Source: Clostridioides phage AR1074-1
Sequence record: OR397123.1
Direction: 5' to 3' (one strand)
Length of the DNA: 38,059 nt
Positions 4,407 to 12,014 of this stretch are shown in pieces. The notes under the pieces were generated by a model that was not told where the DNA came from, made no database searches, and saw only the letters and a list, made by a program, of their open reading frames with translations. Numbering within the stretch: position 1 is the stretch's first letter; every line of letters begins with the position of its first letter. The position numbers were made by a program, and so were the translations under genes.

Positions 4407-5099
4407 CTATTTTTTACGTGCATTTTTCCATTCTGAAAAACTACATAGTCTATATAATTTTTGTATCCTAGGAACTTTTTTATTCTTTTCTTCGTCCCAC
4501 TCAAATTTATTTTCTTTTTTTACTTCGATATATTTGCTTACTTCAAATACTGTTATAATTTTTCTTATTTTACTTCTGTTATTTTTGCTATCACCACATA
4601 ACCCGATTTTTTCACAAATAAATTTTTCAGTCATACATTTAAAACTATTTTCAGTTGTCATGTAACATAAAAGGCAATAAACTTTTATTGCATTAGTATT
4701 AAATGCAGAAATTAATTCTTGTAGCATATCATGATGAATTGTAACAAATTTATGAACGTTATCGTTGTATCCTGTACTTGTACCATAGTTTAATCTATAA
4801 ATTATTCCGTTGCGGCTGTTTTCTATTTCAAGTACTTTACAATCTAAACTATTGAGCTTTTTTATATTTCTCTCTAAAGTAGTACGAGCAACCCCTATTT
4901 GTTTAGCTAATTCTTCCATTTTAAATTTATTTTGATACAAATATCTATTTTTTTCTATATGCATAATTCTCATGCTCCCTTTACTTATAAGCATTAAAGC
5001 GCCAAACTCTTTAGCACAATAATTTTTTTCATTTAAACAATACGTAGGCATTGGTAATTTATAATTTTTTTCTAATTCTTTTGCTTCTTCTAAAGACAT
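4407..5099 (-). CDS. Winged-helix HTH protein, candidate plasmid-type replication initiator (iteron-adjacent)
   Basis: The track ORF is 241 aa. The likely true start is the second Met (MSLEEAKELE...) at 5099, preceded by AAAGGGGGAA and 7 nt. The HTH segment is MEELAKQIGVARTTLERNIKKL. The iterons lie 140 bp beyond its 3' end. Confidence 0.5.
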   Translation of the reverse strand: MSLEEAKELEKNYKLPMPTYCLNEKNYCAKEFGALMLISKGSMRIMHIEKNRYLYQNKFKMEELAKQIGVARTTLERNIKKLNSLDCKVLEIENSRNGIIYRLNYGTSTGYNDNVHKFVTIHHDMLQELISAFNTNAIKVYCLLCYMTTENSFKCMTEKFICEKIGLCGDSKNNRSKIRKIITVFEVSKYIEVKKENKFEWDEEKNKKVPRIQKLYRLCSFSEWKNARKK

Positions 5100-5119
5100 T
5101 TTATTTCCCCCTTTTGACG

Positions 5120-5320
5120 GGGCTTGAAGCACTTTTAACTAATTAAGTTAAAAATTTCAAATTATTTTTAACCTTAAAACATTGATTTATAAGTTGTTTT
5201 AATCTATAATATAACTTATAAATTAGTTAAAAAAGGATATAATTATATCCTATAAGAGCTTCAAGCTCCGTTGGTAAGGAATAAGTCGAGTCGCCAAACA
5301 AACGCTTATTCCTTTTATTT
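5120..5320 (+). ncRNA. Candidate structured antisense/countertranscript RNA opposite the leader of the Rep-like gene, ending in a rho-independent terminator
   Basis: A long-range 13-bp stem pairs cggggcttgaagc (5118-5130) with gcttcaagctccg (5255-5267). Inside are an 18-bp perfect palindrome aggatataattatatcct (5233-5250) and a near-palindrome at 5143-5163. A terminator hairpin aaggaataag...cttattcctt followed by ttttatttgttttt lies at 5278-5325 on the plus strand. No plus-strand CDS lies upstream. Confidence 0.3.
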
Positions 5321-5411
5321 GTTTTTGTAATCTGTAATAAGTTAATATTAATTATAGCATAAATATAAAATAAAAAAATATATTGATTTTGAAAATAAAT
5401 TATATTTTAAA

Positions 5412-5442
5412 AGACTTAGTACACTTACTAAGTCTTTTTTTA
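5412..5442. terminator. Bidirectional hairpin terminator (gacttagta-cact-tactaagtc followed by a T7 run)
   Basis: Perfect 9-bp stem flanked by an A-run upstream and a T-run downstream. Confidence 0.45.
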
Positions 5443-5555
5443 TGTAAATATATGTTATAATAATTTTAGCGAGGAAAAAAGTGATTGAAAAAGCGTAAGA
5501 GTGGCTATTTCCATATTTAAACGCCAAATTCCATAACGGAAGGAGGTGGAACAAT

Positions 5556-5663
5556 ATGGTGATAAATTTTTTATTGAGTATACTAGCTGGTGTTATATCA
5601 GCTTCCATATATGATAAAATAAAAAACCACTCAAACGCCAATAAGAGTGGTTCAAGAAAATAA
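5556..5663 (+). CDS. Type I toxin-like small hydrophobic peptide (35 aa: MVINFLLSILAGVISASIYDKIKNHSNANKSGSRK)
   Basis: Not in the ORF track (under 60 aa). A strong RBS GGAAGGAGGTGG lies 6 nt upstream of the ATG. A single predicted transmembrane helix is followed by a Lys/Arg-rich tail. A convergent antisense promoter and terminator overlap its 3' end. Confidence 0.55.
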   Translation: MVINFLLSILAGVISASIYDKIKNHSNANKSGSRK

Positions 5664-5722
5664 GTTATTTTTCAAAACATTGGAAATAGCTACTCTTGTG
5701 TAAAGTAAATCATTATTTCCTT
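5611..5722 (-). ncRNA. Antisense RNA (type I antitoxin candidate) overlapping the 3' end of the toxin ORF
   Basis: Minus-strand sigmaA-like promoter: -35 TTGTAT (5758-5753), an 18-bp spacer, and an extended -10 TGATATAAT (5737-5729). Minus-strand terminator: hairpin aaccactc/gagtggtt (5625-5653) followed by TTTTTTATTTT. Confidence 0.45.
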
Positions 5723-5785
5723 GCTTTTATTATATCACATTTTTTAAAAAAGATACAATTTTACATCACTTCATATATGTTAATT

Positions 5786-5920
5786 AGTTTAAAAATACAA
5801 AACCACTCTGCGCAAAAGAGTGGTTGGGAATTTGATTTAAAAATCAAATTCAAAAAGTCTAGATAATTTTTTACTTTAGACGAAAACTCTACTCTTATGA
5901 CTGAAATACAGTTCTCTTGC
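5786..5920 (-). ncRNA. Second, orphan copy of the antitoxin-like sRNA module (no toxin ORF partner)
   Basis: A roughly 60-bp promoter repeat (5917-5972) duplicates 5718-5775 but its -35 is changed to TCGTAT. Minus-strand terminator hairpin aaccactct/agagtggtt (5800-5824) followed by TTTTGTATTTTT. No small ORF lies opposite. Confidence 0.35.
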
Positions 5921-6112
5921 TTTTATTATATCACATTTTCTTTAAAAGATACGAATTTATATCATTTCTAATATACTAAAATCTTTACTTTTTACCAAAA
6001 TTTGTTTAAAAATAGGAGAAAACTATTGCTTTTGACGCCCCGTCATGATATAATATATTTATAGAGAAGGAGGTGAGAAAGCAAAAAAAAATAAAAGAAA
6101 GGAGGAACGGGA

Positions 6113-6241
6113 ATGGGGAGATTAGAAAGAAGTAAAAAGAAAAGAGAAAACAAATTTAACATAGTTAAAAAAGTTTTCTCTTTCATCCTATTATTACTTA
6201 ACATAATCCTCGCAGTTCTAAGAATTTTAAAAGAACTGTAA
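6113..6241 (+). CDS. Small membrane peptide (42 aa: MGRLERSKKKRENKFNIVKKVFSFILLLLNIILAVLRILKEL)
   Basis: Not in the ORF track. RBS AAGGAGGAACGGGA then ATG. A basic N-terminus is followed by one transmembrane helix, then an imperfect hairpin (cctagaggg...ccttctctctagg). Confidence 0.4.
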   Translation: MGRLERSKKKRENKFNIVKKVFSFILLLLNIILAVLRILKEL

Positions 6242-6314
6242 GGATAAGCCTAGAGGGAATAGCCCTTCTCTCTAGGTGACTTCTTTCTAATATTATAACA
6301 CATTTCTAAAAAAC

Positions 6315-6476
6315 ATGAGTGATAAATTTTATAAGATTTGCATTGTTTTAGTTTTGATAACTATAGTCTTAAATATAGTATCTATAGTATTAAACTCTAG
6401 TACAAGCAACATGCTCGGTTTAGTTTTTAGTGTTGTATTATTGCTTTTCTTTGTAATACAGCAAAAAAGGAGCTAA
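6315..6476 (+). CDS. Small two-TM membrane peptide (53 aa)
   Basis: ATG at 6315 and stop at 6474-6476, 4 nt before the next gene's ATG. Two hydrophobic helices (ICIVLVLITIVLNIVSIVL and GLVFSVVLLLFFVI). No clear RBS, so weaker support. Confidence 0.3.
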   Translation: MSDKFYKICIVLVLITIVLNIVSIVLNSSTSNMLGLVFSVVLLLFFVIQQKRS

Positions 6477-6479
6477 TGA

Positions 6480-6662
6480 ATGGAAAAAGAAAAAAGAGAT
6501 TTAAAGTTTAACTTTCACAAAGGTGGGAGTGGGTCGTTTACTCCTAGAATGAGTGTTCCTAAAAAATGGGCTGATGAAATGGGCATAACAAGAGAAAACC
6601 CTAATGTTACGGCAACATTCGAGGGCGACAGGATAATAATTGAAAAGGCTAAGAATGAATGA
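6480..6662 (+). CDS. AbrB/MazE-family (SpoVT/AbrB swapped-hairpin) small DNA-binding protein
   Basis: 60 aa. RMSVPKKWADEMGI...VTATFEGDRIIIEKA matches the AbrB/MazE fold signature. RBS AAAAGGAG. Sits immediately upstream of the partition operon. Confidence 0.6.
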   Translation: MEKEKRDLKFNFHKGGSGSFTPRMSVPKKWADEMGITRENPNVTATFEGDRIIIEKAKNE

Positions 6663-6671
6663 CTTTTTCTA

Positions 6672-6712
6672 TAAAAGAAGGTTGCTTTTTTTCTTAGCCT
6701 TCTTTTTTTTAA
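6672..6712 (+). terminator. Rho-independent terminator after the AbrB-like gene
   Basis: Stem aaagaagg/ccttcttt followed by TTTTTTTT. Confidence 0.45.
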
Positions 6713-6940
6713 ATTTTACTATAATATAAAAATAATACTGTAATATTATAAAAATATTATTTTAGTATTGTATATACAATATTTTAGTATTTTTAATATA
6801 ATATATTGGTATTGTAAAAGCAATATGTAAATATTGTATTTATATTATTTGAATATTGTAATTAACAATATTAATATATTGTTGCAATATTATAAAAACA
6901 ATACTACAATATTGTTATAATATTATAAATATAATAATGA
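6713..6940. repeat. AT-rich centromere-like (parS-type) repeat field upstream of parA: many CAATATT/AATATTG boxes and short palindromes
   Basis: Examples: perfect palindrome acaatattgt (6906-6915), caatattaatatattg, attgtaattaacaat, and repeated taatattata/aatattgta units throughout the roughly 230 bp of non-coding DNA. Confidence 0.5.
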
Positions 6941-6941
6941 G

Positions 6942-7760
6942 GTGGAGAAAATGGCTAATACAAAGCTACTTACGTACTTTAACATAAAAGGAGGTATCTA
7001 TAAGACAACAACGTCTATAATGACAGCGTATGAACTTGCGAAAGATAAAGATAAAAAAATACTCTTATGGGACTTAGATGTACAAGCAAATCTAACACAA
7101 TATGTTTATGAAATAAATCATAATGATAATACTACATTAGATATTTTAAAAGGGATTAGTGCTAATGATGCAATAGTCAAGTCACCTAATGAAAAGTACA
7201 TTAATGTAGACTTAATTCCTTCTGACATACAAATGGCTAGATTTGAACAAGAGCTATCACCTTTACCAGCCAGAGAAAAATTTTTAGCTCGCTGGTACAT
7301 GCAAAACTTTAATACTTTGAGTGAGTATGATTATATTATCTGTGATTTATCTCCACGCTACGATTTGACAGCTAAAAATGTGCTTTTCTTAGCAGATAGT
7401 ATAATTATTCCAATTCAAGATAAAAACATTTCTTCTTTAAGAGGAGCAGAATTATTTAAACAACTCTGGGATGTTGATAGAACCTATTTTGATAAGGAGG
7501 ATAATATAAAAAGTACTGTTTTGGTTGGATTTGAGAAGAAGAAAACTCAAATTAGTGATACTTTCGATTCTTATCTGGAAGGGTTTAACGATATGAGAGA
7601 TATTATGTTAGATACATATATTAGAAAAAACGAGTTTATAGAGAAGGCACTATTGAAAAAACTATCTCTAACAGATTATACAAAAATAACTAAAGAGCAT
7701 TTCAGCAGACAAGAGTTTGCTAATATGTTAGAAGAACTAAAAGTGAAAGGAGTGTTGTAG
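6942..7760 (+). CDS. parA: ParA/MinD-family partition ATPase
   Basis: 272 aa with a deviant Walker A (NIKGGIYKTTTS, KGGxxK[ST] type) and Walker A'/B regions (LLWDLD, IICDLSP). RBS GAGGTGGAG. Confidence 0.85.
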   Translation: MEKMANTKLLTYFNIKGGIYKTTTSIMTAYELAKDKDKKILLWDLDVQANLTQYVYEINHNDNTTLDILKGISANDAIVKSPNEKYINVDLIPSDIQMARFEQELSPLPAREKFLARWYMQNFNTLSEYDYIICDLSPRYDLTAKNVLFLADSIIIPIQDKNISSLRGAELFKQLWDVDRTYFDKEDNIKSTVLVGFEKKKTQISDTFDSYLEGFNDMRDIMLDTYIRKNEFIEKALLKKLSLTDYTKITKEHFSRQEFANMLEELKVKGVL

Positions 7761-11174: not shown

Positions 11175-12014
11175 CTATCTATCAATAAAATCTAATGCTT
11201 TGTAAAGTGTTTCAAACCTATCATTACCTTTTATCATAGTATAATTTTCTTTAGTCATAGAACTTATCTTTTCACATGCTCCACCACCAACAACATAAAG
11301 ATTTTGTGTCTGGCCAGGTACATAATCTTTTATATCACATATTAATATTTTCCCATCATTATAACCCCATCCAACAACAGTTGCAGGGATTTTGTCAACT
11401 TCTCCATCATAAATGATTGTATGTTTGTACATCTGTTTAACTCCCTCATTATTTATATTTTTATTTAATACACCTTCTACAATCAACTTAGCAATACCTT
11501 CATGACCTAGTTTCTTAGCTTTCTCATAATCTTCTTTGTTATCGCAAAAGAAACTTTCAATTAGTATTGCAGTAGGTTTAGAACTATTTAAAATATATAA
11601 ACTTTTATCTAATTTAACACCTCTATTACCTACTTCTTTATCTCCTTTTTTTCTTATGAAAGGTTTAGATAATTTATCTACTACCCTTTGCGCATATTCC
11701 TTCCCTTTTTCACTATAGTAAAATACTTCTGTTCCAAAGGCTCCTACACCACTTGAATTTAAATGCAACTCTATAAGTAAGTCATATCCTCCACTATTAA
11801 CTTTAGGTATTTTGTAAGATTTTTCCTCACTCTTAGTTTTAAACTGCTTTTCGGGGCATATTATTACATCTGCCTTATGACCTTCTTTTCTAAAAGTATC
11901 TGCTAATACTGGTGCAAGAGATTTATTGTATTGATACTCGTTAACTACTCCATTAGCAGAAGTACATGCCCCGCTTTTTAAAATGCTGTGTCCTACTGTT
12001 ATACATATTTTCAT
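11175..12014 (-). CDS. Endolysin: N-acetylmuramoyl-L-alanine amidase (Amidase_3 catalytic domain, CD27L-like)
   Basis: 279 aa. MKICITVGHSILKSGACTSANGVVNEYQYNKSLAPVLADTFRKEGHK... is nearly identical in pattern to the C. difficile phage endolysin CD27L, as recalled from memory. Confidence 0.9.
   Translation of the reverse strand: MKICITVGHSILKSGACTSANGVVNEYQYNKSLAPVLADTFRKEGHKADVIICPEKQFKTKSEEKSYKIPKVNSGGYDLLIELHLNSSGVGAFGTEVFYYSEKGKEYAQRVVDKLSKPFIRKKGDKEVGNRGVKLDKSLYILNSSKPTAILIESFFCDNKEDYEKAKKLGHEGIAKLIVEGVLNKNINNEGVKQMYKHTIIYDGEVDKIPATVVGWGYNDGKILICDIKDYVPGQTQNLYVVGGGACEKISSMTKENYTMIKGNDRFETLYKALDFIDR

Follow-up and report, generated by a model that had tools for sequence, protein, structure and literature searches.

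In Bacillus subtilis, txpA/RatA and bsrG/SR4 are convergent type I toxin-antitoxin (TA) pairs that reside on prophage-like elements; their transcripts overlap at the 3' ends and the resulting duplex is expected to trigger decay. In hok/Sok and aapA1/IsoA1 the toxin mRNA becomes active once its 3' end is trimmed, and the 5' region is where the antitoxin RNA pairs. The toxin promoter of tisB/istR-1 is also held off by LexA, a global regulator of the host. Orthogonality is usual among addiction modules that are stacked in one element. Prophages and plasmids of Clostridioides difficile are stabilised by type I TA modules, which have been reused as counter-selection tools, and one such module is gp33 of phage phiCD38-2, the gene just upstream of the locus described here (Peltier et al. 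2020, PMC7699646). This locus is a cassette of three small genes, open reading frame (ORF) A, ORF-B and gene C, which we analysed in Clostridioides phage AR1074-1 (sequence record OR397123.1); "the window" denotes the whole stretch of 38,059 nucleotides, and all coordinates refer to it. The original prediction, made from the letters of the window, had picked out ORF-A and ORF-B as two unannotated membrane peptides beside a TA locus, and had proposed them as additional toxins, holin-like proteins, exclusion proteins or pre-peptides of a quorum or arbitrium-like system.

Small open frames are commonplace in AT-rich DNA of this kind (41 ORFs of at least 20 amino acids (aa) lie within 3.5 kb), so conservation was the test that was needed. 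Distant-mode BLAST combined with pattern scans yielded homologous regions whose nucleotide identity reached as low as about 65%. All 32 distinct full-length cassettes carry A, B and C intact and in constant order, with a gap of 73-77 nucleotides (nt) between A and B. A is invariably 42 aa long, B measures 51-55 aa and C 57-62 aa, and protein identity between types falls as low as 38% for A, 39% for B and 38% for C. Among seven divergent types the mean proportions of nonsynonymous and synonymous differences (pN/pS) are 0.25/0.46 for A, 0.29/0.56 for B and 0.32/0.65 for C, and pairwise ratios of the corresponding rates (dN/dS) are mostly 0.2-0.5. The sense frames of the 32 cassettes contain no stop codon, as against 2-13 in most other frames, although one antisense frame of A is also open. 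The original prediction had suggested looking at the conservation of the peptides across related phages and at synonymous and nonsynonymous change; both the A and the B frame are open in 32/32 cassettes and dN/dS is below 1 for each, a record of selection on the peptides and not of its absence. Together these alignments show that the A, B and C frames are all under purifying selection and that their order and spacing are fixed. As far as sequence can tell, ORF-A and ORF-B are very probably genes that are expressed and belong to a single conserved unit. The original prediction was thus right to take both for genuine small peptides of membrane type, but it missed that they form one invariant cassette with the AbrB-like gene.

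Two viral contigs from other hosts, L081 (1090-1680; 45% GC) and L080 (1140-1685; 35% GC), rebuild the whole architecture with unrelated peptides. The promoter spacer holds a dyad, and a small basic peptide and a hairpin are followed by a small membrane ORF that lacks a Shine-Dalgarno (SD) sequence and by an AbrB-like gene. The L081 peptide has 38 aa, a basic N-terminus and a hydrophobic C-terminus, and cannot be aligned with A. It is followed by an SD-less ORF of 59 aa with two helices, which overlaps the start of a C homologue 40% identical to that of the window. Because the layout is the same, the cassette design may extend beyond C. difficile.

The strongest signals in the cassette, missed in the original prediction, are non-coding, namely a putative operator dyad, a predicted anti-SD clamp and a predicted antisense RNA gene. 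Upstream of ORF-A, the plus strand carries a predicted sigma-A promoter, P_A (6026-6054), with a -35 element TTGCTT (6026-6031), a 17-nt spacer, a TG (6046-6047) and a -10 element TATAAT (6049-6054); transcription is predicted to start near 6061. A promoter scan also returned a TTGACG-16-TATATT match that overlaps P_A. The -35, the extended -10 and the spacing between them are kept in the aligned cassette types and in the distant L081. Within the spacer of P_A lies a dyad, TGACG-ccc-CGTCA (6033-6045), whose half-sites covary symmetrically among cassette types (TGACG/CGTCA, TCACG/CGTGA, TGCCG/CGGCA, ATTACG/CGTAAT). Likewise, the distant contigs have ATTCG/CGAAT (L081) and AAACGG/CCGTTT (L080), which brings the symmetric variants to six overall, and tandem cassette copies in one genome have differing dyads. 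Since the dyad is located upstream of the mRNA start, its symmetry points to a dimeric DNA-binding protein. The dyad is presumed to be the operator of protein C, the sole candidate in the cassette, which would bind there.

The predicted 5' untranslated region (UTR) of ORF-A (6061-6112, plus strand) contains two SD sequences, SD1 (AAGGAGG, 6067-6073) and SD2 (AAAGGAGG, 6098-6105). SD2 ends 7 nt before the ATG of ORF-A and serves it. Among cassettes the UTR occurs in a long form with two SDs and a short form with one, which differ by a duplication of ~30 nt; this difference is polymorphic within one cassette type (L004:448 versus L009:305). The duplication could tune translation of the peptide.

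The mRNA predicted to span 6061-6292 folds with -62.8 kcal/mol (z = -5.2), and a consensus fold of 11 diverse sequences contains three helices: a long-range pairing, an intragenic hairpin and a terminator hairpin. The long-range helix is an invariant pairing of 10 bp between codons 4-7 of ORF-A (6123-6132) and a pyrimidine-rich anti-SD element on the plus strand (CUUCUUUCUA, 6280-6289; CUUCUUUCU, 6280-6288), which can pair instead with the SD at the 5' terminus (6065-6074). The segment CTTCTTTCT is fully invariant across 14 distinct intergenic sequences. In partition-function folding the pyrimidine element has a probability of being unpaired of at most 0.07 in all types, and its pairing partner is either codons 4-7 or the SD element at the 5' terminus. 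It is therefore predicted by these models to clamp the 3' end of the A mRNA onto the 5' end. In cassettes with the short UTR the sole SD is predicted to be paired with a probability of about 0.4-0.8; in the long-UTR form of the window SD2 is predicted to be mostly open (probability unpaired 0.73).

The other two helices vary in a way that preserves pairing. The hairpin inside ORF-A (6141-6183; arms 6141-6151 and 6173-6183) has compensatory changes at 3 pairs, all Watson-Crick, and could thus form on both strands. The terminator-like hairpin after the stop codon (6248-6277, plus strand), found by a terminator scan, has 12 bp and a T-rich tail; it shows compensatory changes at 4 pairs, and its variants use G-U pairs that are workable on plus-strand RNA only. 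Overall, 94% of the cells of the consensus structure are paired, versus 48-66% when the partners are slid. Compensatory change affects seven pairs, and the observed covariation score was reached by 0/500 shuffles.

Convergent to P_A, the minus strand carries a predicted promoter, P_as, with an extended -10 of the form TGTG-T-TATAAT (6292-6302; -10 at 6297..6292). The minus-strand sequence TGTGTTATAAT of P_as is invariant, as is the plus-strand sequence TTATAACA in 14/14 distinct intergenic sequences, and the block 6278-6306 is nearly invariant in the same 14, where flanking synonymous sites differ at about half. The form TGTGnTATAAT recurs at minus-strand promoter-like sites that flank type I toxin ORFs in the window (5729-5739 and 5925-5935), and L081 has a minus-strand TATAAT at the equivalent place. 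From P_as, an antisense RNA of ~155 nt is predicted (6128-6286, minus strand, ends approximate) that would start near 6285, fold into three hairpins and cover codons ~6-42 of ORF-A together with the 3' UTR. Its predicted terminator consists of the complement of the intragenic hairpin, followed by a U-tract complementary to the Lys/Arg codons at 6126-6140. This arrangement is present in every cassette type, and in L081 the terminator is textbook-like, a long GC-closed stem followed by UUUUCUUUUUUCUUUUGUUUUG. An Rfam search of 5100-7000 (E <= 5) returned noise only.

ORF-A itself (6113-6241, plus strand) starts with ATG and encodes 42 aa, MGRLERSKKKRENKFNIVKKVFSFILLLLNIILAVLRILKEL. It matches PHROG 5134 over positions 1-42 of 42 (E = 7e-28), a family that has no assigned molecular function, and corresponds to WP_009894330.1 and to phiCD38-2 gp32, annotated as a 'putative membrane protein'. 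The good ribosome-binding site (RBS), the basic N-terminus, the hydrophobic segment and the hairpin after the stop, all named in the original prediction, were found. Nine of the first 20 residues are Lys or Arg, the net charge is +8, and an uncharged stretch of 16 residues follows (21-36), with a best 17-residue Kyte-Doolittle window of 2.6. The C-terminal half forms a hydrophobic or amphipathic helix, and the peptide falls within the small (<60 aa) hydrophobic class to which type I toxins belong. A full HMMER search against 1.84 billion representatives gave 3 matches, which makes A an orphan family, and word-indexed homologue searches retrieved close relatives only. The exact 42-aa sequence occurs in 1384 blocks of a public assembly index.

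A minus-strand ORF of 53 aa (6043-6204) overlaps ORF-A and is annotated in phiCD111 as PHICD111_28032, 'Putative membrane protein'. Its frame is open in all cassettes but has no conserved minus-strand start codon, and it is probably spurious; the frame stays open because ORF-A has no Tyr or His codons and uses Gln only in a context that forms no stop.

ORF-B (6315-6476, plus strand) starts with ATG and encodes 53 aa with two hydrophobic helices and a short, charged C-terminus. As originally described, it has no clear RBS, and an SD sequence is absent from every homologue. It matches PHROG 11497 (1-53 of 55, E = 1e-26), likewise a family that has no assigned molecular function. Lacking an RBS, ORF-B is skipped by gene callers: it was passed over in 6/6 of the NCBI assembly contigs inspected, where A and C are called, as well as in a RefSeq plasmid record, and in a large protein collection it is called on only three contigs versus 835 for A. 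ORF-B is annotated in phiCD111, phiCD24-1, phiCDKH01 and Hain-Saunders-2022a. The word 'unannotated' is therefore right only in part, B being the one that gene callers usually miss. The ORFs themselves are not new, since the proteins are already catalogued as families and one or both are annotated in several phage records. The literature searched contains no account of the cassette as a unit, of its regulatory elements or of the predicted antisense RNA, and the papers on JD032, phiCDKH01 and AcrIB2 make no mention of A or B.

Our preferred reading, which we hold to be about evenly balanced between right and wrong, is that the cassette is a type-I-TA-like pair (A and its antisense RNA) that is repressed by C and has B as a co-translated membrane partner. 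P_A would produce an ORF-A mRNA of ~230 nt, whose 3' pyrimidine element would clamp the 5' end. The convergent extended -10 promoter would give rise to an antisense RNA of ~155 nt over most of ORF-A, ending at an intrinsic terminator made of A-rich Lys/Arg codons. Either duplex-triggered decay or a block of translation would then keep ORF-A in check, much as in those type I pairs of Firmicutes that overlap at their 3' ends. In this scheme the toxin would be ORF-A, a cationic peptide that is anchored by its tail and acts on the membrane, and C would be a dimeric AbrB-type DNA binder that represses P_A through the cassette-specific dyad in the spacer. B would be a two-helix membrane protein, translationally linked to C, that acts as partner or immunity factor of A or as a second effector. 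The role of the whole would be maintenance of the element or exclusion of competitors, and tandem copies would be orthogonal through their differing operators and RNA sequences. The existence of tandem diverged copies with distinct operators suggests selection for such orthogonality.

Several observations weigh against this reading. The long-range helix is invariant, so covariation lends it no support, and with SD2 predicted open, silencing of translation by the clamp is not predicted in the window. P_as has no -35 match, and no convincing plus-strand promoter for B-C was found within 6241-6315, so that read-through of the A terminator has to be invoked for the expression of B and C. For ORF-A and ORF-B nothing meaningful was found in Pfam, NCBIfam or PADLOC, and neither matches a known toxin family; the NF047374 hidden Markov model, which matches the neighbouring 35-aa ORF, matches neither of them. 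In divergent A types the uncharged stretch shrinks to 13 residues, few for a membrane span, and the polarity of ORF-A, with a charged N-terminus and a hydrophobic C-terminus, is opposite to that of the known C. difficile type I toxins. Furthermore, a classical type I TA system requires neither B nor C, yet both are always present, and the role of B is left without explanation.

The distribution of the cassette bears on another explanation, in which A and/or B are non-toxic membrane proteins of a lysogenic-conversion 'moron' that block superinfection at DNA entry or alter the envelope, with C as local regulator. The cassette occurs in two unrelated contexts. In ParA phage-plasmids a single cassette lies between the CD-type toxin ORF and parA, and in integrating phiCD24-1-/phiCDKH01-like prophages one to three tandem diverged copies are convergent with the endolysin and holin genes. 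Judged by where its sequence is found, the cassette is mobile between C. difficile temperate phages and phage-plasmids. A position downstream of and convergent with lysis genes is the classical one for a moron, and the integrase gene of phiCD24-1 lies on the cassette's other side. PHROG 11497 is placed in the category 'moron, auxiliary metabolic gene and host takeover', and diversified tandem copies could target different competitors. The PHROG category is, however, an annotation and not a test, and a structured mRNA together with a convergent antisense RNA gene is not what normally accompanies an exclusion protein. Diversification also affects operator and RNA elements as strongly as the proteins, which argues for self-recognition and not for recognition of foreign phages. 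We consider a moron of this kind unlikely, the most serious of the alternatives all the same.

These contexts also decide part of the original prediction, which had clustered the peptides with the TA locus. The neighbourhood stands in the ParA phage-plasmids, where the window indeed has three hydrophobic micro-ORFs in 1 kb (the toxin ORF at 5556-5663, ORF-A and ORF-B), but the cassette of the integrating prophages lacks a CD-type toxin ORF in its vicinity, so its association with the TA locus is incidental. A scan of a genome collection returned one locus, a 35-kb contig in a 'Veillonella' metagenome-assembled genome with two cassettes like the C. difficile prophage types, which is probably a misbinned phage contig.

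Gene C (6480-6662, plus strand; 60 aa) is AbrB/MazE/SpoVT-like and matches PHROG 2329 (E = 2e-33). Its SD sits within the 3' end of ORF-B, and other cassette types have the stop codon of B adjoining the start codon of C or overlapping it, in one type as ATGA. RefSeq labels homologues of C as AbrB/MazE/SpoVT family proteins, and one plasmid record says PemI. The best Pfam match is MazE_antitoxin (PF04014; 17.0 bits against a cutoff of 24.7), and TIGR01439 gave 14.1 against 28.3. AbrB ranks first in a PDB profile search (E = 0.025). An AlphaFold2 model shows a beta-alpha-beta-beta order with a pLDDT of 58, too low for a reliable fold search, and the top three Foldseek matches are AbrB or Abh and not significant. 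These four signals are weak but concordant, and favour an AbrB-like protein as far as profiles and models reach. C-like proteins are more widespread than A and B, and most occur without them. A hairpin with a T-run 3' of gene C (6673-6712, plus strand), seen in the fold and as inverted repeat I19, is likely the end of a B-C (or A-B-C) transcript.

These features of C would also fit a protein-antitoxin system, type II-like or tripartite, in which the killer is B (GhoT- or holin-like) or A, C is a labile antitoxin and autorepressor, and the minus-strand promoter is an insulator or has no function. Besides the MazE_antitoxin match and the PemI label there is apparent translational coupling of B and C: C has a strong RBS, that of B is weak or absent, and this gives the stoichiometry that type II operons with the toxin gene in front typically have. 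Autoregulation by an antitoxin would also be consistent with the promoter dyad. But the Pfam match is below the gathering score, and it is hard to see how a soluble 60-aa protein of AbrB fold would neutralise a peptide that is almost wholly embedded in the membrane. Such a system would leave unexplained the invariant minus-strand extended -10, the conserved terminator and the covarying intragenic hairpin, and we regard it as improbable.

An accessory role in the timing of lysis, in which B would be a holin or pinholin-like protein and A would modulate it in the manner of an antiholin, is very unlikely. The two hydrophobic helices and the short charged C-terminus of B speak for it, as does the fact that the cassette abuts an endolysin-holin pair in the phiCD24-1-/phiCDKH01-like prophages; but the cassette is transcribed convergently to those lysis genes, and these phages already have a holin. 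In the window the amidase gene (11178-12014) is about 4.5 kb from the cassette. The search for holin families found no match in Pfam or PHROGs, and in JD032 the C homologue belongs to the 'middle' expression class, with replication and partition genes, and not to the late lysis class (PMC7205517). The idea that A and B are quorum or arbitrium-like pre-peptides, or chance ORFs that yield no product, recommends itself by their small size and by the missing RBS of ORF-B, but is hardly credible given the open frames and the selection described above: neither peptide has a signal-peptide-like N-terminus followed by a short mature tail, both being of membrane type over most of their sequence, and conservation of the neighbourhood is limited to A, B and C, with no tetratricopeptide repeat (TPR) receptor gene adjoining the cassette in either context.

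The 'additional toxin' of the original prediction is a live option for ORF-A, whose locus combines a predicted conserved convergent antisense promoter and terminator, a structured mRNA and tandem diverged copies; for ORF-B, its holin and exclusion ideas are conceivable. It is possible, if rather doubtful, that the cassette represents a new class of addiction or defence system, in which a type I pair is hard-wired to a co-diversifying AbrB-type repressor and a dedicated membrane partner. If so, two independent cassette-specific locks, the RNA duplex and the operator, would let several orthogonal copies stack in one prophage, and the cassettes would supply naturally orthogonal repressor-operator and RNA-RNA pairs. 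Should the mechanism hold, the type I TA theme would gain a built-in repressor and membrane partner, and a second, unrelated and more elaborate TA family would add a determinant of maintenance or competition to these phage-plasmids. The number of assembly blocks that carry the exact ORF-A indicates that the cassette is common in an important pathogen, and ORF-B is an example of a conserved gene overlooked by automatic annotation.

By nucleotide match, the region around the cassette is that of a C. difficile siphophage-plasmid of the phiCD38-2/phiCD146/phiCD6356 group; over 5100-7000 its identity with plasmid pCd18_3 is 99.9%, and with phiCD146 it is 99.4%. The toxin ORF at 5556-5663 encodes a short-variant C. 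difficile type I toxin of 35 aa (NCBIfam CD_typeI_toxin, NF047374; E = 1.5e-10, under the curated cutoff). A further ORF (5696-5866) has last 22 codons (...NHSAQKSGWEFDLKIKFKKSR) that match the C-terminus of the phiCD38-2 gp33-type toxin, and a second minus-strand copy of the TGTGATATAAT promoter is found at 5925-5935, with a minus-strand terminator at 5825-5801. Taken together, these features give the segment 5696-5980 the appearance of a decayed second type I TA module, in which a truncated toxin stands beside an orphan antitoxin RNA gene, and such a remnant would account for the direct repeat of 5715-5760 and 5910-5975. Related elements carry one or the other toxin variant, or both.

On the other side, parA (6942-7760) follows gene C after an AT-rich repeat field. 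This field (6720-6940), directly upstream of parA, contains about six imperfect repeats with 22-bp phasing and many inverted copies, and is a candidate partition site (parS/centromere) or parA operator. The top plus-strand promoter match of the region is TTGATT-17-TATAAT (5182-5210). Downstream of it, at about 5230-5310, are three short hairpins and then a T-run, and no ORF is present there; by this layout, 5182-5310 may encode a small RNA beside the divergent replication-region gene on the minus strand (4407-5132).

Among described systems, the closest in host and location are the C. difficile type I TA modules (CD2517.1-RCd8, CD0977.1-RCd11 and phiCD38-2 gp33). Like them, the cassette is found on C. 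difficile phages and plasmids, encodes a small peptide of membrane type and occurs in multiple diverged copies, and a convergent antisense RNA gene is predicted in it, with a promoter of the form TGTGnTATAAT, as at 5729-5739; in the window it lies directly beside such a module. In contrast, A and B share no sequence similarity with these toxins and the polarity of A is reversed. The cassette, moreover, always adds B and an AbrB-like gene, and has an operator-like dyad in the toxin promoter. A was not found in the phage survey of Peltier et al. 2020, which was homology-based, and A would therefore have escaped it (PMC7699646).

With txpA/RatA and bsrG/SR4 the cassette shares a prophage-like location and, as predicted here, convergent transcription, overlap at the 3' end and an expected decay of the duplex. 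The peptide families are unrelated, however, and the overlap in the cassette would extend over nearly the whole ORF, with the antisense terminator placed within the coding region. The predicted closure of the mRNA by long-distance pairing of its 5' and 3' ends, involving a complement of the ribosome-binding region, resembles that of the toxin mRNAs of hok/Sok and aapA1/IsoA1, whereas the predicted antisense RNA of the cassette overlaps the 3' end and the functional SD of the window is predicted to be open.

C would resemble MazE, PemI/Kis and AbrB-type VapB as a putative small DNA binder of the swapped-hairpin type, encoded beside a putative killing function, with a palindrome that overlaps the promoter. 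It differs from them in that its profile scores are sub-threshold, there is no enzymatic protein toxin and its partners are membrane peptides. Finally, as in tisB/istR-1, a type I toxin promoter would be placed additionally under a protein repressor; in the cassette, unlike in tisB/istR-1, this repressor would be encoded by the cassette itself and would co-diversify with its operator.

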